A DNA stretch of 22,668 nt from a virus (Duplodnaviria > Heunggongvirae > Uroviricota > Caudoviricetes). The first letter of the stretch is position 1, and every line of letters starts with the position of its first letter. The notes beneath the pieces were generated by a model. That model was not told the DNA's origin, did no database searches, and worked only from the letters and a program-made list of their open reading frames with translations. Shown here in pieces: positions 123 through 22,147 of the stretch. The stretch covers positions 1-22,668 of IMG/VR virus record IMGVR_UViG_2778260991_000002; one strand, given 5' to 3'. A program made the translations under genes and the position numbers.

Positions 123-491
123 TTGATGCGTGATATTCAGATGGTTCTGGAGCGTTGGGGGGCATGGGCGGCGAGTGATAGTTCAGGCGTTGATTATTCA
201 CCTATAGCTGCTGGGTTTAAGGGACTTCTTCCCTATACAAGCAAGAAACGCTTGGCTTGTTCGGATAGTGATGCCTTAATTATTGAAGGTTGTCTTGCTC
301 GTCTAAAGCAAAAAAGGCCGGACGAACATTCGCTTCTTGTTGCCCATTACCTATACGGTATCTCTAAAAGAAAGCTCGCCAAGGCTCGTAAAAAAGATGA
401 GAAATTGATACGTATAGAAATACAGCTAGCCGAAGGATTTATTGATGGCTGCCTTTCCATGCTAGATCTAACATTAGATTTGGACGTTTAA
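123..491 (+). CDS. Q: Late-gene antitermination protein Q, short QuuD/phage-82-like type (122 aa), not the lambda Q type
   Basis: 122-aa ORF starting MMRDIQMVLERWGAWAA..., recalled as the N-terminus of the short Q antiterminators of E. coli lambdoid prophages. SD-like GGTGGAGAAAG upstream of the ATG at 123 (second ATG at 126). Position immediately upstream of the lysis region fits Q. Confidence 0.8.
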   Translation: MMRDIQMVLERWGAWAASDSSGVDYSPIAAGFKGLLPYTSKKRLACSDSDALIIEGCLARLKQKRPDEHSLLVAHYLYGISKRKLAKARKKDEKLIRIEIQLAEGFIDGCLSMLDLTLDLDV

Positions 492-520
492 TAATACGCC
501 CCTGCATGGGGCGTATTATT
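490..520. terminator. Strong hairpin between convergent Q and KAP NTPase genes; candidate bidirectional intrinsic terminator
   Basis: Perfect inverted repeat AATACGCCCC (493-502) / GGGGCGTATT (508-517) with loop TGCAT, extendable to about 13 bp (490-520). Overlaps the Q stop (489-491) and the minus-strand KAP stop (520-522). Flanked by moderately U-rich sequence on both strands. Confidence 0.55.
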
Positions 521-1851
521 TACTGGATGAATGACATTTGATTAATATATTTTATCAATAACTCTCTGGGGGTAGTACTCCAAAAATTTATGTGTTCATA
601 ATCAGTATAAACATTTGTGAATTTTTTAAGTTCTTCATCACTTTTAGGGGCAAATCGCTCATTAAGAGTAATACTGTCTTTAATTATTCCGAAGAATACA
701 ATGGATATTTCAGGGATTTGCGATCTTCTCTCATAAGAATAAGGTATTTCTTTTATGTTAAGCAGGTCTGCTAAATAAGATATAGATTCAGCGGTAATTT
801 CTTGTTTTAGTTTTTCCTTGTTACCAAAGCAATGTATGAAGGCAGCTACGACAAAGATCATATTTATTAAAGGATTACTGCTTTTGTTCTCATCGTCGTT
901 TAACAGTTGAAAAATGTTAAGATTGCGTGAAAATGTTTGTGTTTCACGTAATGATAAGTTGGTTCGTTGAATTAAATCACGGATAAAGTAACCTGATAAT
1001 CTATTGATTTTATTCAATAACCTTGTTTTTTCTACAAGATAATCCCAATATATAACAGAGGCTTTACATACGTTGTGACCATTTATCAAACATGTATCTG
1101 GAAGCGTGATGGTATATTTTATAAACTTGTCAAGATATTTTTGTGAGTTAATGCTATAACCATAAATATGATTTATAGATGCTTTTAATTGTTCTGTGTT
1201 TGTAACTAAAATAAAAAAGACATTATTGATGTCAAAAATGTGTTTTATTGTTTCAATAACATTTGTTGAAAAACTCGGCTTACATCGGTCTAATTCATCA
1301 ATTATAATTACGATTTTTTGATTTTTTGATATACTTTCGATGCAGGATTTAAGTGAATTTATGTTTTTCTCTGAGTCCATATGGTCTTCAAGCAAATTTT
1401 CAATAGTCCCATCTATTGCTGCATTGCTTGCTTTCTTCATCGCATCTTGGAATTCTTCGGCAACTTCACTAGCCTCCTGTCGTAAAAACCAACCTGCACC
1501 AGCTTTTAGTACCGTTTTTAAACCAAAGCGAATTGCAGGAAGAGATCTCTTAATGAAGTGTTGTTTTTCTTCCTCAGGCAAAATGCTGGCAATTGCAGAG
1601 GTTATGAGAAGTAATGGAGATTCTGCATGATCCCCTTTAAAGGCATCAATATAAACAACTTTAGATTCAGTTTCTTGCTCAATAATGAGATTTTTCAGTT
1701 TGATACTAAATTCTGTTTTCCCTGTTCCCCATGCGCCGTCTATTACCAGTGGTGAAATGTCTGCCTCTGGTTTTAGCAACTTGATGATATTTTCAGCGAT
1801 GTTTCTTCGTTGGAACTCGTCACGTTCAGTGAAAGATAGTGTATCTAACAT
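520..1851 (-). CDS. KAP-family P-loop NTPase (PifA-like), 443 aa; accessory gene, candidate phage-exclusion/defence protein
   Basis: Walker A with the KAP-typical tryptophan, GAWGTGKT, near the N-terminus, and Walker B IVIIIDELDRC (the DELDRC KAP hallmark). Local GC is much lower than the flanks (about 25% in a sampled 60-nt stretch at 1141-1200, against roughly 55-60% in the structural genes). Opposite strand to all phage late genes. Confidence 0.75.
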   Translation of the reverse strand: MLDTLSFTERDEFQRRNIAENIIKLLKPEADISPLVIDGAWGTGKTEFSIKLKNLIIEQETESKVVYIDAFKGDHAESPLLLITSAIASILPEEEKQHFIKRSLPAIRFGLKTVLKAGAGWFLRQEASEVAEEFQDAMKKASNAAIDGTIENLLEDHMDSEKNINSLKSCIESISKNQKIVIIIDELDRCKPSFSTNVIETIKHIFDINNVFFILVTNTEQLKASINHIYGYSINSQKYLDKFIKYTITLPDTCLINGHNVCKASVIYWDYLVEKTRLLNKINRLSGYFIRDLIQRTNLSLRETQTFSRNLNIFQLLNDDENKSSNPLINMIFVVAAFIHCFGNKEKLKQEITAESISYLADLLNIKEIPYSYERRSQIPEISIVFFGIIKDSITLNERFAPKSDEELKKFTNVYTDYEHINFWSTTPRELLIKYINQMSFIQ

Positions 1852-2465: not shown

Positions 2466-3518
2466 ATGAAAAATACTGTAAAAATAAACAGTGTTGATTT
2501 AATCAACGCTGATTGCCTGCATTTTATTCAGTCCCTGCCTGATGACTCCATTGATCTGATTGTTACCGATCCACCGTACTTCAAAGTGAAGCCCAACGGC
2601 TGGGACAATCAGTGGAAAGGGGACGAAGATTACCTTAAGTGGCTGGACCACTGTCTGGCCCAGTTCTGGCGGGTGTTGAAACCTGCCGGAAGCCTTTACC
2701 TGTTCTGTGGACATCGCCTGGCATCTGATATCGAGATCATGATGCGTGAACGTTTCAATGTGCTTAACCATATCATCTGGGCGAAGCCGTCCGGACGTTG
2801 GAATGGGTGTAATAAAGAAAGTTTGCGCGCATATTTTCCTGCCACAGAGCGCGTTCTGTTTGCTGAACATTACCAGGGGCCATATCGCGGCAAAAGTGAC
2901 GGCTATGCGGCAAAAGAAAGGGAACTCAAACAGCACATAATGGCACCGCTGATATCGTATTTCAGGGATGCTCGTGCCGAACTGGGTATAACGGCAAAAC
3001 AGATTGCCGAAGCCACAGGTAAGAAAAATATGGTTTCCCACTGGTTTGGTGCCAGTCAGTGGCAGTTGCCGAATGAGGCTGACTACCGGAAGTTGCAGGC
3101 ACTTTTTTCCCGTATAGCGGCAGAGAAGTTTCAGAAACAACAACTGGAACAACCACACCACCAGCTGGTGGCATCTTATGATTCACTGAATCGCAAATAT
3201 TCTGAATTGCTGGATGAGTTTAAATCTCTCCGGCGCTATTTCTCCGTATCAGTCTCCGTGCCTTATACCGATGTCTGGATGCATAAACCCGTTCAGTTCT
3301 ACCCGGGTAAACATCCGTGTGAGAAACCGGCGGATATGCTCAGGCAAATAATCAACGCCAGTAGTCGACCAGGTGATCTGGTTGCTGATTTCTTTATGGG
3401 ATCCGGTTCCACAATAAAAGCAGCAATGGCGCTGGGGCGTCGGGCGTTAGGTGTTGAGCTTGAGTCAGAGCGGTTTAACCAGACGGTGAAAGAGGTAAGT
3501 GAACTGGTGGGGAAATAA
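2466..3518 (+). CDS. DNA methyltransferase, beta-class amino-methyltransferase (N6-adenine or N4-cytosine; DPPY suggests N6-adenine), 350 aa, no cognate endonuclease seen
   Basis: Motif IV IVTDPPYF near the N-terminus and AdoMet-binding motif I FFMGSGST near the C-terminus, which is the beta-class order. The central region between them is the presumptive target-recognition domain. No restriction endonuclease gene adjacent. Confidence 0.85.
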   Translation: MKNTVKINSVDLINADCLHFIQSLPDDSIDLIVTDPPYFKVKPNGWDNQWKGDEDYLKWLDHCLAQFWRVLKPAGSLYLFCGHRLASDIEIMMRERFNVLNHIIWAKPSGRWNGCNKESLRAYFPATERVLFAEHYQGPYRGKSDGYAAKERELKQHIMAPLISYFRDARAELGITAKQIAEATGKKNMVSHWFGASQWQLPNEADYRKLQALFSRIAAEKFQKQQLEQPHHQLVASYDSLNRKYSELLDEFKSLRRYFSVSVSVPYTDVWMHKPVQFYPGKHPCEKPADMLRQIINASSRPGDLVADFFMGSGSTIKAAMALGRRALGVELESERFNQTVKEVSELVGK

Positions 3519-4347: not shown

Positions 4348-4575
4348 TGATAGTTGTTACTTTTGGCGATGTAACGATATCAAACGAGAATTTATATCGC
4401 CAGATGCTTAATCTGACACTTCATCTGACCCTAGTATGTGCCGTTTTTTTTATTTAAGGCCGCTGACAGGTCCATTTAGTGCGACGCCTTTCCCCGTTTC
4501 CGCTCCTGGAATATTCGGGGATTTTTTATTCCCTCAATTTGCACCCGCGATATGTGCGAGGTGAGAGATGACGAA

Positions 4576-4911
4576 ATGCCTCATAACCCAAATACCTGGC
4601 CGGACTGGCTGGAGTTGTTCCAGAGCTGGTGGCGTGGAGACACACCACTGGGCGCAGTGATTATGTCGATCGTTATGGCTGGTTTACGTATTGCCTATTT
4701 TGGCGGCGGTGGCGGCTGGAAACGAAAAACACTCGAAATTTTGCTCTGTGGTGCTCTGACGCTGACATTTGCATCCGCTCTTGAGTATGTCGGATGGCCT
4801 AAATCGCTTTCTGTTGCCATTGGTGGTGGCGTGGGGCTGATCGGTGTCGATGCTATTCGTGGGGCTGCAATGCGAGTAATCGGTAACAAATTTGGTAGCT
4901 CGAAGGAGTAA
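4576..4911 (+). CDS. Class I holin (three predicted TM segments), not lambda S-like in sequence
   Basis: ORF 4552-4911. ATG at 4576 preferred (SD GAGGTGAGAG at 4558-4567); upstream in-frame ATG at 4552 could give a longer antiholin-like form. Three hydrophobic stretches (LGAVIMSIVMAGLRIAYF, TLEILLCGALTLTFASALEYVGW, LSVAIGGGVGLIGVDAI) and a charged C-terminus. Immediately precedes endolysin R. Confidence 0.7.
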   Translation: MPHNPNTWPDWLELFQSWWRGDTPLGAVIMSIVMAGLRIAYFGGGGGWKRKTLEILLCGALTLTFASALEYVGWPKSLSVAIGGGVGLIGVDAIRGAAMRVIGNKFGSSKE

Positions 4912-4914
4912 TTT

Positions 4915-5391
4915 ATGCAGGCACTAAATTCCCAGCGTAAAGCTTTCCTTGATATGGTGGCATGGTCAGAAGGAACGGATAACGGGAGACAACCGACACG
5001 TAACCACGGTTATGACGTTATTGTCGGTGGCGAACTCTTCACTGATTACTCCGATCACCCTCGAAAACTTGTCACGCTAAATTCGAAAATCAAATCAACA
5101 GCAGCCGGACGTTACCAACTCCTTTCCCGTTGGTGGGATGCCTACCGCAAGCAGCTTGGTCTGAAAGACTTCTCTCCGAAAAGCCAGGACGCTGTTGCAC
5201 TGCAGCAGATTAAAGAGCGTGGCGCTTTACCGATGATTGATCGCGGTGATATTAGTCAGGCTATCGATCGTTGCAGCAATATCTGGGCTTCACTGCCGGG
5301 CGCTGGTTATGGTCAGTTCGAGCATAAAGTTGACAGCCTGATTGCAAAATTCAAAGAAGCAGGCGGAACGGTCAGAGAGATTGAGGTATGA
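4915..5391 (+). CDS. R: Endolysin R (lambda-type lytic transglycosylase), 158 aa
   Basis: Near-identical to recalled lambda R (…[52 protein letters not shown]…). Start 4 nt after the holin stop; its stop overlaps the Rz start. Confidence 0.95.
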
Positions 5392-6868: not shown

Positions 6869-7388
6869 ATGGAAGTCAACAAAAAGCAGCTGGCTGACAT
6901 TTTCGGTGCGAGTATCCGTACCATTCAGAACTGGCAGGAACAGGGAATGCCCGTTCTGCGAGGCGGTGGCAAGGGTAATGAGGTGCTTTATGATTCTGCC
7001 GCCGTTATAAAATGGTATGCCGAAAGGGATGCTGAAATTGAGAACGAAAAGCTGCGCCGGGAAGTTGAAGAACTGCGGCAGGCCAGCGAGACAGATCTCC
7101 AGCCAGGGACTATTGAGTACGAACGCCATCGACTTACGCGTGCGCAGGCCGACGCACAGGAGCTGAAAAATGCCAGAGACTCCGCTGAAGTGGTGGAAAC
7201 CGCATTCTGTACTTTCGTGCTGTCGCGGATCGCAGGTGAAATTGCCAGTATTCTCGACGGGATCCCCCTGTCGGTGCAGCGGCGTTTTCCGGAACTGGAA
7301 AACCGACATGTTGATTTCCTGAAACGGGATATCATCAAAGCCATGAACAAAGCAGCCGCGCTGGATGAACTGATACCGGGGTTGCTGA

Positions 7389-11115: not shown

Positions 11116-12415
11116 TCTCCCGCATATTGCCAGCATGGCCTTTAATGAGCCGCTGATGCTTGAACCCGCCTATGCGCGGGTTTTCTTTTGTGCGCTTGCA
11201 AGCCAGCTTGGGATCAGCCGCCTGACGGATGCGGTGTCCGGTGACAGCCTAGCTGCCGGAGAGGCACCCGCGACGCTGGCGTTATCCGGTGATGATGACG
11301 GACCACGACAGGCCCGCAGTTATCAGGTCATGAACGGCATCGCCGTGCTGCCGGTGTCCGGCACGCTGGTCAGCCGGACGCGAGCGCTGCAGCCGTATTC
11401 GGGGATGACCGGTTACAACGGCATTATCGCCCGTCTGCAACAGGCTGCCAGCGACCCGATGGTGGACGGCATTCTGCTGGATATGGACACACCGGGCGGG
11501 ATGGTGGCGGGAGCATTTGACTGTGCTGACATCATCGCCCGTGTGCGTGACATAAAACCGGTATGGGCGCTTGCCAACGACATGAACTGCAGTGCAGGTC
11601 AGTTGCTTGCCAGTGCCGCCTCCCGGCGTCTGGTCACGCAGACCGCCCGGACAGGCTCCATCGGCGTCATGATGGCTCACAGTAATTACGGTGCTGCGCT
11701 GGAGAAACAGGGTGTGGAAATCACGCTGATTTACAGCGGCAGCCATAAGGTGGATGGCAACCCCTACAGCCATCTTCCGGATGACGTCCGGGAGACACTG
11801 CAGTCCCGGATGGACGCAACCCGCCGGATGTTTGCACAGAAGGTGTCGGCATATACCGGCCTGTCCGTGCAGGCTGTGCTGGATACCGAGGCTGCAGTGT
11901 ACAGCGGTCAGGAGGCCATTGATGCCGGACTGGCTGATGAACTTGTTAACAGCACCGATGCGATCACCGTCATGCGTGATGCACTGGATGCACGTAAATC
12001 CCGTCTCTCAGGAGGGCGAATGACCAAAGAGACTCAATCAACAACTGTTTCAGCCACTGCTTCGCAGGCTGACGTTACTGACGTGGTGCCAGCGACGGAG
12101 GGCGAAAACGCCAGCGCGGCGCAGCCGGACGTGAACGCGCAGATCACCGCAGCGGTTGCGGCAGAAAACAGCCGCATTATGGGGATCCTCAACTGTGAGG
12201 AGGCTCACGGACGCGAAGAACAGGCACGCGTGCTGGCCGAAACCCCCGGTATGACCGTGGAAACGGCCCGCCGCATTCTGGCCGCAGCACCACAGAGTGC
12301 ACAGGCGCGCAGTGACACTGCGCTGGATCGTCTGATGCAGGGGGCACCGGCACCGCTGGCTTCAGGTAACCCGGCATCTGATGCCGTTAACGATTTGCTG
12401 AACACACCAGTGTAA
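11096..12415 (+). CDS. C: Head maturation protease/scaffold protein C (439 aa), GTG start
   Basis: The listed ORF start at 10961 lies inside B. The lambda-equivalent start is GTG at 11096 (VTAELRNLPHIASMAFNEPLM...) with SD GAGGAGGAG upstream; the length is then exactly 1320 nt as in lambda C. Confidence 0.9.
11810..12415 (+). CDS. Nu3: Capsid scaffolding protein Nu3, in-frame internal start within C
   Basis: In-frame ATG at 11810 (MDATRRMFAQKVSAYTGLSVQ...), 714 nt after the C start, the same offset as lambda Nu3 relative to C. Shares the C stop. Confidence 0.75.
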   Translation: MDATRRMFAQKVSAYTGLSVQAVLDTEAAVYSGQEAIDAGLADELVNSTDAITVMRDALDARKSRLSGGRMTKETQSTTVSATASQADVTDVVPATEGENASAAQPDVNAQITAAVAAENSRIMGILNCEEAHGREEQARVLAETPGMTVETARRILAAAPQSAQARSDTALDRLMQGAPAPLASGNPASDAVNDLLNTPV

Positions 12416-12424
12416 GGGATGTTT

Positions 12425-12757
12425 ATGACGAGCAAAGAAACCTTTACCCATTACCAGCCGCTGGGCAACAGTGACCCGGCTCATACCGCAACCGCGCCCG
12501 GCGGATTGAGTAAGAAAACGCCAGCAATGACTCCGTTGATGCCGGATACCTCCACCCGTAAGCTGGTTGCGTGGGATGGCACCACCGACGGTGCTGCCGT
12601 TGGCATTCTTGCTGTTGCTGCTGACCAGACCAGCACCACGCTGACGTTCTACAAGTCCGGCACGTTCCGTTATGAGGATGTGCTCTGGCCGGAGGCTGCC
12701 AGCGACGAGGCGAAAAAACGGACCGCGTTTGCCGGAACGGCAATCAGCATCGTTTAA
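12425..12757 (+). CDS. D: Head decoration protein D
   Basis: [29 protein letters not shown]..., near-identical to lambda gpD. ATG at 12425 with SD AAGGGA upstream; an ATG two codons earlier at 12419 is less likely. Confidence 0.93.
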
Positions 12758-12774
12758 CCTGACCCTTCATCACT

Positions 12775-12799
12775 AAAGGCCGCCTGTGCGGCTTTTTTT
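12775..12799 (+). terminator. Terminator-like hairpin plus T7 run in the D-E intergenic region (inside the late operon)
   Basis: GCCGC (12779-12783) / GCGGC (12788-12792) with loop CTGT, flanking AAA/TTT extension, then seven T (12793-12799). Sits 14 nt upstream of the E start. Confidence 0.5.
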
Positions 12800-12812: not shown

Positions 12813-13838
12813 ATGTCGATGTACACAACCGCCCAGCTGCTGGCGGCAAATGAGCAGAAATTTAAGTTTGATCCGCTGTTTCTGCGTCTCTTTTTCCGTG
12901 AGAGCTATCCCTTCACCACGGAGAAAGTCTATCTCTCACAAATTCCGGGACTGGTAAACATGGCGCTGTACGTTTCGCCGATTGTTTCCGGTGAGGTTAT
13001 CCGTTCCCGTGGCGGCTCCACCTCTGAATTTACGCCGGGATATGTCAAGCCGAAGCATGAAGTGAATCCGCAGATGACCCTGCGTCGCCTGCCGGATGAA
13101 GATCCGCAGAATCTGGCTGACCCGGCTTACCGCCGCCGTCGCATCATCATGCAGAACATGCGTGACGAAGAGCTGGCCATTGCTCAGGTCGAAGAGATGC
13201 AGGCCGTTTCTGCCGTGCTCAAGGGCAAATACACCATGACCGGTGAAGCCTTCGATCCGGTTGAAGTGGATATGGGCCGCAGTGCGGCGAACAACATCAC
13301 ACAGTCCGGCGGCACGGAGTGGAGCAAGCGTGACAAGTCCACGTATGACCCGACCGACGATATCGAAGCCTACGCGCTGAACGCCAGCGGTGTGGTGAAT
13401 ATCATCGTGTTCGATCCGAAAGGCTGGGCGCTGTTCCGTTCCTTCAAAGCCGTCAGGGAGAAGCTGGATACCCGTCGTGGCTCTCATTCCGAGCTGGAGA
13501 CAGCGGTGAAAGACCTGGGTAAAGCGGTGTCCTATAAGGGGATGTATGGCGATGTGGCCATCGTCGTGTATTCCGGACAGTACGTGGAAAACGGCGTCAA
13601 AAAGAACTTCCTGCCGGACAACACGATGGTGCTGGGGAACACTCAGGCACGCGGTCTGCGCACCTATGGCTGCATTCAGGATGCGGACGCACAGCGCGAA
13701 GGCATTAACGCCTCTGCCCGTTACCCGAAAAACTGGGTGACCACCGGCGATCCGGCGCGAGAGTTCACCATGATTCAGTCAGCACCGCTGATGCTGCTGG
13801 CTGATCCTGATGAGTTCGTGTCCGTTCAACTGGCGTAA
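12813..13838 (+). CDS. E: Major capsid protein E
   Basis: MSMYTTAQLLAANEQKFKFDPLFLRLFFRESYPFTTEKVYLSQIPGLVNMALYVSPIVSGEV..., near-identical to lambda gpE (341 aa). ATG at 12813; the listed ORF start at 12786 is an upstream GTG inside the hairpin. Confidence 0.95.
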   Translation: MSMYTTAQLLAANEQKFKFDPLFLRLFFRESYPFTTEKVYLSQIPGLVNMALYVSPIVSGEVIRSRGGSTSEFTPGYVKPKHEVNPQMTLRRLPDEDPQNLADPAYRRRRIIMQNMRDEELAIAQVEEMQAVSAVLKGKYTMTGEAFDPVEVDMGRSAANNITQSGGTEWSKRDKSTYDPTDDIEAYALNASGVVNIIVFDPKGWALFRSFKAVREKLDTRRGSHSELETAVKDLGKAVSYKGMYGDVAIVVYSGQYVENGVKKNFLPDNTMVLGNTQARGLRTYGCIQDADAQREGINASARYPKNWVTTGDPAREFTMIQSAPLMLLADPDEFVSVQLA

Positions 13839-13840
13839 TC

Positions 13841-13861
13841 ATGGCCCTTCGGGGCCATTTT
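13841..13861 (+). terminator. Hairpin with UUCG tetraloop plus U-rich tail in the E-FI intergenic region
   Basis: ATGGCCC (13841-13847) / GGGCCAT (13852-13858) with loop TTCG, followed by TTTCTCTCT. Sits between the E stop (13838) and the FI start (13880). Confidence 0.5.
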
Positions 13862-13879
13862 CTCTCTGTGGGGGAGTCC

Positions 13880-14275
13880 ATGACGAAAGATGAACTGATT
13901 GCCCGTCTCCGGTCGCTGGGTGAGCAACTGAACCGTGATGTCAGCCTGACGGGAACGAAAGAAGAACTGGCGCTCCGTGTGGCAGAGCTGGAAGAGGAGC
14001 TTGATGACACGGATGACGCAGCCGGTCAGGACACGTCTGTCAGCCCGGAAAATGCGCTGACCGGACATGAAAATGAGGTGGTATCAGCACAGACGGATAC
14101 CGTGACTGATACGGCTGCTCTGGTCACGGTTGTGGCACTGGTGATGCTGCATACCGATGCACTTCACGCCACGCGGGATGAACCTGTGGCATTTGTGCTG
14201 CCGGGAACGGCGTTTCGTGTCTCTGCCGGTGTGGCAGCCGAAATGACAGAACGTGGCCTGGCCAGAATGCAATAA
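13880..14275 (+). CDS. FI: DNA packaging protein FI
   Basis: MTKDELIARLRSLGEQLNRDVSLTGTKEELALRVAELEEELDD... matches lambda gpFI. ATG at 13880 with SD GGGGGAG upstream. Confidence 0.92.
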   Translation: MTKDELIARLRSLGEQLNRDVSLTGTKEELALRVAELEEELDDTDDAAGQDTSVSPENALTGHENEVVSAQTDTVTDTAALVTVVALVMLHTDALHATRDEPVAFVLPGTAFRVSAGVAAEMTERGLARMQ

Positions 14276-22126: not shown

Positions 22127-22147
22127 AAACCGCCTGCGGGCGGTTTT
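22127..22147 (+). terminator. Terminator-like stem-loop in the I-J intergenic region
   Basis: AAACCGCC (22127-22134) / GGCGGTTT (22139-22146) with loop TGCG, followed by T. Lies between the I stop (22108) and the J start (22169). Confidence 0.45.

Follow-up and report, generated by a model that had tools for sequence, protein, structure and literature searches.

Gene content and spacers of the late operon

The window (the whole stretch of DNA analyzed, 22,668 nucleotides) is a segment of a lambda-like prophage that spans the region from the antiterminator gene Q to the start of the tail-fibre gene J and is about 97% identical to lambda from position 4933 onward. Gene positions were taken over from the annotated relative PhiR11_1. 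Gene Q is located at positions 123..491 (Pfam PF06530) and gene D at 12419..12757. Gene E, which encodes the major capsid protein of 341 amino acids, occupies positions 12813..13838 of the + strand (Pfam PF03864 Phage_cap_E, E=1e-71), and its product is 98.8% identical to that of lambda E. The stop codon of E (TAA, 13836..13838) is followed by TC. The next cistron downstream, FI, extends on the + strand from an ATG at 13880 to a stop at 14275 (PF14000 Packaging_FI, E=1e-50) and is preceded by the Shine-Dalgarno sequence GGGGGAG (13870..13876, + strand). The two genes are separated by a spacer of 41 nt, and their junction reads TAA-TC-ATGGCCC-TTCG-GGGCCAT-TTTCTCTCTG-T-GGGGGAG-TCC-ATG.

Only three spacers in the structural late operon are longer than 20 nt, namely D-E (55 nt), E-FI (41 nt), and I-J (60 nt), which together amount to 156 nt. 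At nearly all other junctions, the late genes overlap or are at most 15 nt apart. Each of the three long spacers contains a GC hairpin, located 2 to 18 nt past the upstream stop codon. The major tail gene V is followed by a spacer of only 15 nt and has no 3′ hairpin, whereas gene I has one.

Three further features lie outside the spacers of the structural genes. Between Q and the holin gene (4552..4911), the window carries two cargo genes, one encoding a KAP-family P-loop NTPase (520..1851, − strand, PF07693, E=9e-71) and the other a DNA methylase (2466..3518, + strand, PF01555); PhiR11_1 has an OmpD-like porin gene in their place. A perfect 13-bp palindrome, AATAATACGCCCC-TGCAT-GGGGCGTATTATT (490..520, ΔG about −20), occupies the exact junction of the convergent genes for Q and the KAP NTPase. 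It resembles a bidirectional terminator and raises the question of where pR′ is located in this prophage. The hairpin GAACCCGC-CTATGC-GCGGGTTT (11162..11183), which is followed by TCTTTTG, is also terminator-like and is found within the coding sequence of gene C, just past the end of B.

Hairpins that flank the capsid gene

The E-FI spacer contains a + strand stem-loop at 13841..13858, which starts 2 nt past the E stop codon. The 5′ arm (A13841-C13847) and the 3′ arm (G13852-T13858) form seven perfect pairs (ATGGCCC/GGGCCAT), five of which are G-C, and the TTCG loop (T13848-T-C-G13851) is closed by a C-G pair, giving the cUUCGg motif in RNA (C13847-UUCG-G13852). A preliminary description of this DNA had singled out this 7-bp stem and its loop just past E, and both sequence and folding bear it out. 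The span given there, 13841-13861, is correct for the start of the stem, but the stem ends at 13858 and the remaining positions are the first three T of the tail. The isolated hairpin has a ΔG of −12.3 kcal/mol. It is retained in both the MFE and the centroid structures of an 80-nt context, and its five inner pairs have pair probabilities of 0.92-0.99 with 50-250 nt of flank. A simple terminator scan listed the hairpin, whose 7-bp stem and 4-nt loop are within the range of intrinsic terminators (about 5-14 bp, G+C rich, with a loop of 3-8 nt).

On its 3′ side, the stem is followed by a TTTCTCTCT tail. The whole tail (13859..13868, + strand) is rich in pyrimidines and U and immediately precedes the FI ribosome-binding site. 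The U-rich tail of the preliminary description is therefore present, with 5 U in the first 8 positions of UUUCUCUC, but only 3 of them are consecutive, whereas a typical terminator has at least 4 near-consecutive U within 8 nt. The lambda tail at the same site is UUGUUUCU. As a terminator U-tract, the tail at 13859..13868 is weak. In the MFE fold of the window, its CUCUCU stretch can pair with the GGGGGAG Shine-Dalgarno sequence, although this helix is absent from the centroid.

Upstream of E, the D-E spacer contains the hairpin AAAGGCCGC-CTGT-GCGGCTTTT (12775..12796, with a T run to 12799, + strand; ΔG −11.7, pair probability 0.87-1.0), which has the canonical shape of an intrinsic terminator. 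A D-E spacer hairpin is present in 8 of the 8 phages examined. The D-E hairpin is thus real and, as had been proposed, brackets E together with the E-FI hairpin. The third hairpin, AAACCGCC-TGCG-GGCGGTTT (22127..22146, + strand; ΔG −13.1), has a UNCG loop and is located 18 nt past the stop codon of the tail gene I, within the 60-nt I-J spacer.

No Rfam family matched at its gathering score anywhere in the window, and around the E-FI hairpin only chance-level matches were found at E values up to 10. The best nearby match, to isrK on the D-E hairpin, scored 18 bits against a threshold of 50. We therefore rejected membership in an Rfam family, including the REP element. An RNase III site was also rejected, because by established knowledge a 7-bp stem is far too short for one.

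An equally stable hairpin is found in 1.5% of the 41-nt tiles of the + strand late operon and in 364 of 5000 dinucleotide shuffles (7.3%) of the spacer, which is rich in G/C runs, and the 80-nt fold has a z-score of −1.9. Given a P value of about 0.07 in the spacer shuffles, the E-FI sequence alone proves nothing. Taken singly, the hairpin is only modestly unusual, and the convincing part of the evidence is comparative. As for the three long spacers as a group, hairpins with a ΔG of −11.5 or lower occur at about 18 places in 15.8 kb, and 3 of these are in the three spacers longer than 20 nt, where about 0.18 would be expected (Poisson P about 0.001, by hand arithmetic).

Conservation and covariation of the E-FI hairpin

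Among loci with at least 97% identical E proteins, which came mostly from IMG/VR and in part from genome contigs, the stem is kept everywhere. We found 85 copies of ATGGCCC...GGGCCAT and 21 copies of GTGGCCC...GGGCCAT, the latter with a G-U wobble that pairs only in + strand RNA. The loop variants UUCU, UUCA, and UUAG occur at single loci. The tails differ (TGTTTCTC, TGTTTTTC, TTTCTCTC, and TGTCTCTC) yet remain T-rich.

Locus searches with a single protein returned mostly near-identical prophages, and diverse relatives were obtained by an alignment search of genome contigs. The GGCCC/GGGCC core is kept in N15, phi80, HK225, and in prophages of Kluyvera, Klebsiella, Enterobacter, Citrobacter, Trabulsiella, Buttiauxella, and others. 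In relatives of the lambda/N15 type, E is 86-90% identical to the window E, and the outer pairs and the loop are changed. In a gap-free alignment of 24 distinct lambda/N15-type sequences, 97% of the stem cells are standard pairs. Two outer pairs of the seven covary via G-U intermediates: at pair 1, 10 rows have A-U, 8 have G-U, and 4 have G-C; at pair 2, 16 rows have U-A, 1 has U-G, and 4 have C-G. Both sides have changed in 8 cells, and the observed covariation score was reached by none of 500 shuffles. Sliding the 3′ partner by one column reduces pairing to 55-57%. The five inner pairs are invariant in part because the family was gathered with the pattern GGCCC-N4-GGGCC. The sole relative outside this pattern (L215, from Erwinia, with an E protein 75% identical to that of N15) has UGGUCCC-GUCC-GGGGCCA, a stem of seven pairs, one of which is U-G.

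The wobble pairs also identify the strand on which the structure is selected. In all nine rows of the alignment that contain a wobble, as well as in three variants of the D2 and 569R10 types described below, the wobbles are G-U or U-G on the + strand. No mismatch of the A-C type, which a minus-strand structure could tolerate, occurs in the alignment or among the wobble variants of the D2 and 569R10 types, and the selected structure is therefore + strand RNA. A minus-strand element was rejected because that strand has no T tail and the wobbles would be A-C mismatches on it. We conclude that the E-FI hairpin is a conserved structured RNA with compensatory changes. Conservation in lambda-like phages, which the preliminary description had named as a check, is what we find. 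The structure, strand, position, conservation, and covariation of the hairpin are direct observations.

The emphasis that had been placed on the UUCG tetraloop has to be tempered. Of the 24 rows, 15 have UUCG as the loop and another 3 have UCCG or UGCG, but the N15 group has AUUC, UGUC, UGUU, or UUUC on the same stem (phi80 and HK225 also carry AUUC or UGUC), and GAAA is the loop of another group. UUCG is therefore favored and not required. Within the lambda/N15-type family, 39-50 nt separate the E stop codon from the FI ATG. In N15-type spacers, CUUUCU runs directly into GGAG, and the helix between the tail and the Shine-Dalgarno sequence is not conserved.

Of 5426 complete E. coli genomes, 3204 (about 59%) contain the segment 13700..14000 at 95% identity or higher, with up to 5 copies in each. 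No annotation of the hairpin was found in the sampled RefSeq records.

Several other features of the relatives are worth recording. It is exactly at the E stop codon (13838/13839; query position 139) that DNA homology to HK225, mEp237, and one phi80 record breaks off, so that a mosaic recombination joint coincides with the hairpin. The start codons of FI are probably mis-called in D2 (OM475427, L085 1648), where FI is called at an ATG in the hairpin loop, and in phi80 (JX871397, L002 1649), where it is called at a GTG at the very start of the stem; in both, a Shine-Dalgarno sequence and an ATG are found downstream of the hairpin. Lastly, contigs that are 96-100% identical to lambda E, often at about 1× coverage, occur in assemblies of unrelated organisms (loci L185-L200, L218, L221, and L226-L242), including Chromatium, Neobacillus, Kitasatospora, Bradyrhizobium, Akkermansia, and Corynebacterium. 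These contigs are almost certainly lambda DNA contamination of sequencing libraries.

Hairpins at the 3′ ends of distant capsid genes

Capsid stop codons were placed by tblastn in 240 loci, and the next 75 nt were searched for hairpins. A hairpin with a ΔG of −9.5 kcal/mol or lower that starts within 25 nt of the capsid stop codon was found in 13 of 17 sequence-unrelated E-family lineages, which are not strictly independent (L215 is perhaps homologous to the lambda type), against a control rate of 5.4% in 578 windows drawn from within the E genes of these loci and hence coding rather than intergenic (binomial P about 6e−14).

The hairpins vary widely in sequence and length. In the D2 type, whose E is 62% identical to that of the window, the hairpin is GCGGGGGC-GAAAU-GCCCCCGU, followed by GUCUUUUUU, and a G-C to A-U compensatory change is found in L222. 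The annotated spacer of 18 nt in D2 had pointed to a lack of the hairpin, which was ruled out by the finding of an 8-bp hairpin followed by T6. The 569R10 type (E 57% identical to the window E) has AAGAGCC-GAAA-GGCUCUU, followed by U4-6 and overlapping the stop codon, with U-G and G-U variants in L086 and L098. The motif cUUCGg occurs independently in L223 (E 59% identical to the window E), as GGGGC-UUCG-GCCCC. The stems measure 8 bp in L216 (E 72% identical to the window E), 11 bp in L227 (E 79% identical to D2 E), and 7 bp in L099 (E 83% identical to 569R10 E). In lineages whose E is more distant from the window E, they measure 12 bp in L243 (43%), 10 bp in Vibrio phage K251 (33%), and 8 to 15 bp in L257, L259, and L260 (32-35%). 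No hairpin was found after the capsid stop codon in four marine lineages (L247, L251, L252, and L253).

Across 43 distinct variants of hairpin plus tail, the downstream 8 nt contain on average 4.6 T and the upstream 8 nt contain 2.0 A, against a T frequency of 0.20 in the background. T-rich tails are confined to the + strand side. By their sequence, most enterobacterial versions look like + strand intrinsic terminators. Their U-tracts range from good (UUUUUUCU, with U8, in L254) through poor (UUGUUUCU in lambda) to none (L227 and L257). In five hairpin-bearing lineages (L227, L099, L087, L257, and L260), the tail has only 0-3 T of 8, and in these same five lineages the hairpin nearly abuts the Shine-Dalgarno sequence of the next gene. 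Because these five lineages have hairpins without a U-tract, the hairpin at the capsid 3′ end is the invariant feature, while the U-tract is frequent and optional. The position at the capsid 3′ end is convergently occupied by hairpins across E-family capsid modules.

Proposed role of the E-FI hairpin

Lambda makes about 400 copies each of E and D and catalytic amounts of the neighboring proteins, and this balance has traditionally been ascribed to translation initiation alone. Sampson et al. (1988, PNAS) reportedly named translation initiation as the main determinant of how strongly the lambda late genes are expressed relative to one another, an attribution that would leave little for control at the mRNA level. 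Our search of the full-text literature turned up no measured 3′ ends of lambda late mRNA and no measured levels of E versus FI RNA. The effects of the hairpin on RNA 3′ ends, RNA stability, and protein stoichiometry we infer from its shape and conservation only.

We propose, with about even confidence, that the E-FI hairpin is a 3′-end protective structure or a leaky terminator that favors E RNA. The stem-loop would be made in the rightward late transcript, and its shape is that of a weak factor-independent terminator inside an operon. Lambdoid late operons are transcribed from pR′ by a Q-carrying polymerase. Q proteins narrow the RNA exit channel and thereby prevent the formation of termination hairpins (review PMC12360218). 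Because the Q-modified polymerase suppresses termination at hairpins, most polymerases should read through the E-FI hairpin, which would then stay within the polycistronic mRNA. There, it would most likely block 3′-to-5′ exonucleases after endonucleolytic cuts downstream, and a minority of unprotected polymerases may also stop at it. As a result, RNA that ends just past E would outlast and outnumber RNA that extends over FI and the distal genes.

Several observations bear on which of these two activities prevails. A stable stem-loop at the 3′ end of the upstream cistron, 2 nt past the E stop codon, is the placement expected of a 3′ stabilizer. The terminator-like D-E hairpin is much stronger than the E-FI one, and if it terminated transcription it would lower transcription of E itself; the bracketing of E is therefore easier to explain by protection of RNA ends. 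Because the U-tract is absent in five hairpin-bearing lineages, a role as an RNA structure also fits better than obligatory termination. Conversely, the T-rich tails that recur after most enterobacterial variants point to selection for termination competence and not for a pure exonuclease barrier. A further point against the proposed role is that a hairpin only 2 nt past the stop codon must be transiently melted by terminating ribosomes. Since V, likewise a highly expressed gene, has no hairpin and the low-abundance gene I has one, hairpin placement does not simply track protein abundance. The preliminary description had suggested either protective 3′ structures or partial terminators that raise E stoichiometry. 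The protective half of that proposal appears to us to fit better, since the partial-terminator half is complicated by a Q-modified polymerase that prevents hairpin formation in the RNA exit channel.

A broader version of the protective reading treats the D-E, E-FI, and I-J hairpins together as a conserved RNA-stability cassette. We hold it only tentatively that these hairpins are not terminators in lytic growth, during which Q disables termination, but stability elements. It is possible, although we would not expect it, that they serve purely to protect the 3′ (and possibly also the 5′) ends of D and E mRNA segments after processing. With similar reserve, we suggest that the cassette might help to set the ratio of capsid to accessory proteins across E-family capsid modules.

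Alternatively, the hairpin could be a fail-safe terminator that stops Q-less polymerase, arising from leak-through at tR′ or from spurious starts inside the prophage, and keeps the late genes silent in lysogens, with no role in the E:FI ratio during lytic growth. We consider this rather unlikely. It would account for the terminator shape, for the listing of the hairpin by the terminator scan, for the T-rich tails found on the + strand side only after most independent enterobacterial variants, and for the annotation of homologous hairpins in N15 and HK225 as putative rho-independent terminators. Action against Q-less polymerase is also one possibility named for terminators of P22-like phages, whose roles are said not to be known (PMC8022706), and the occurrence of these prophages in 3204 of 5426 complete E. 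coli genomes makes the lysogenic state the common one. However, the U-tract is poor both here (UUUCUCUC) and in lambda (UUGUUUCU), and the five lineages mentioned above have hairpins without any U-tract. Moreover, a terminator downstream of E cannot stop leaky expression of E, and the consistent siting at the 3′ end of the capsid gene would be left unexplained. Term-seq data for EHEC Sakai exist, as cited in PMC7547250.

Two other explanations do not involve RNA 3′ ends. The hairpin may serve as a translational insulator that uncouples the heavily translated E from FI by blocking post-termination ribosomes, and it may hold the pyrimidine tract and the FI Shine-Dalgarno sequence in a set conformation so that FI is translated at its own rate. 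The tight junctions of the other late genes, which overlap or are at most 15 nt apart and are thus coupled, set E apart as a gene flanked on both sides by spacers with hairpins, and both the narrow range of the distance from the E stop codon to the FI ATG (39-50 nt in the lambda/N15-type family) and the potential pairing of CUCUCU with GGGGGAG in the MFE fold of the window agree with such a role. We nevertheless find it improbable, because the helix between the tail and the Shine-Dalgarno sequence is weak, is absent from the centroid, and is not formed in N15-type spacers, and because insulation offers no reason for recurrent U-rich tails or for GC-rich, terminator-like stems. It is very improbable that the feature acts at the DNA level or is neutral, whether as a palindrome at a module joint, a protein site, a chance inverted repeat, or the start of an extended FI. 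The coincidence with the mosaic joint at the E stop codon and the 7% of spacer shuffles that are equally stable would be expected under such an explanation, and the ATG or GTG of the stem is in frame with FI in lambda and N15, with the phi80 record starting FI there. This explanation is already largely refuted by the covariation via G-U intermediates that pair only in + strand RNA and by the unrelated hairpins at the same position in 13 of 17 lineages. An N-terminally extended FI from the stem ATG was rejected because in 11 of 37 distinct relatives the frame or the start codon is lost while the stem is kept; in addition, the ATG is buried in the stem and no Shine-Dalgarno sequence precedes it.

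If the hairpin does control RNA ends, as the protective or leaky-terminator reading proposes, it would add an RNA-level layer to the balance of lambda capsid proteins. Since about 59% of complete E. coli genomes have prophages with the element, it is a very common RNA structure, and it offers a cheap and well-defined test case for terminator-shaped hairpins inside antiterminated operons. New in this analysis are the covariation, the strand assignment, the convergent position across E-family modules, and the dispensability of UUCG. The preliminary description thus read a known kind of feature correctly, which does not amount to a discovery.

Comparison with known systems

The E-FI hairpin is a real, conserved feature of a known kind, and it has already been annotated as a putative terminator in relatives. 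Homologous hairpins are recorded as putative rho-independent terminators in N15 (NC_001901, stem_loop 7053..7073) and HK225 (JQ086371, terminator 7009..7028), and these terminator annotations are predictions only. Like the hairpin in the window, they have a GGCCC/GGGCC core, lie between the E and FI homologues, and have a partner hairpin between D and E. They differ in having G-C instead of A-U as the outer pair, AUUC or UGUC as the loop, and CUUUCUGG as the tail. The D-E hairpin is also annotated as a rho-independent terminator in N15 and HK225, and in the phage 434 record the D-E terminator is the only one annotated.

In the textbook case of T7, the terminator Tphi is located directly past the capsid gene 10, and sequencing reads drop after it (PMC6938266). 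An equivalent terminator follows the capsid gene of LUZ100 (PMC10134795). As in the window, a hairpin is positioned directly 3′ of the top-expressed structural gene within a long co-directional late region. In contrast, Tphi acts on a single-subunit phage polymerase, with dedicated promoters before the capsid gene, whereas the window has one distal promoter and depends on a host polymerase made termination-resistant by Q.

The terminators TJ, TF, TG, and TH of phiX174 resemble the hairpin of the window in that they are weak, intrinsic, and situated in spacers that follow structural genes, among them the major capsid gene F. At TJ, TF, and TG, only 20-40% of transcription is blocked each time, and the phiX174 terminators, which are mostly read through, shape a staircase of transcript abundance (bioRxiv 10.1101/2020.03.05.979765). 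Unlike the late operon of the window, phiX174 has no antitermination, so that termination efficiency is the operative variable, and its hairpin sequences are unrelated.

A predicted terminator is also found after the procapsid module of the P22-like phage L, and such terminators were described as not unique and as having roles that are not known (PMC8022706). Phage L shares with the window a predicted terminator at the end of a capsid block in an antiterminated late operon with a single promoter. It differs in its capsid family and hairpin sequence, and its terminator follows the whole procapsid module instead of bracketing the capsid gene.

Stem-loops that stabilize mRNA between cistrons include the REP sequences in malEFG and the hairpins of the puf operon of Rhodobacter. 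Hairpins with cUUCGg are said to have been first described by Tuerk et al. (1988, PNAS) in intercistronic regions of T4, and E. coli terminators are reportedly enriched in UUCG and GNRA loops (d'Aubenton Carafa et al., 1990). The E-FI hairpin is not a REP sequence, and its tetraloop is replaceable in relatives. What it has in common with the T4, REP, and puf hairpins is an intercistronic position, which in T4 extends to the exact cUUCGg motif in phage mRNA, and a proposed function as a barrier to 3′ exonucleases that favors the upstream cistron.
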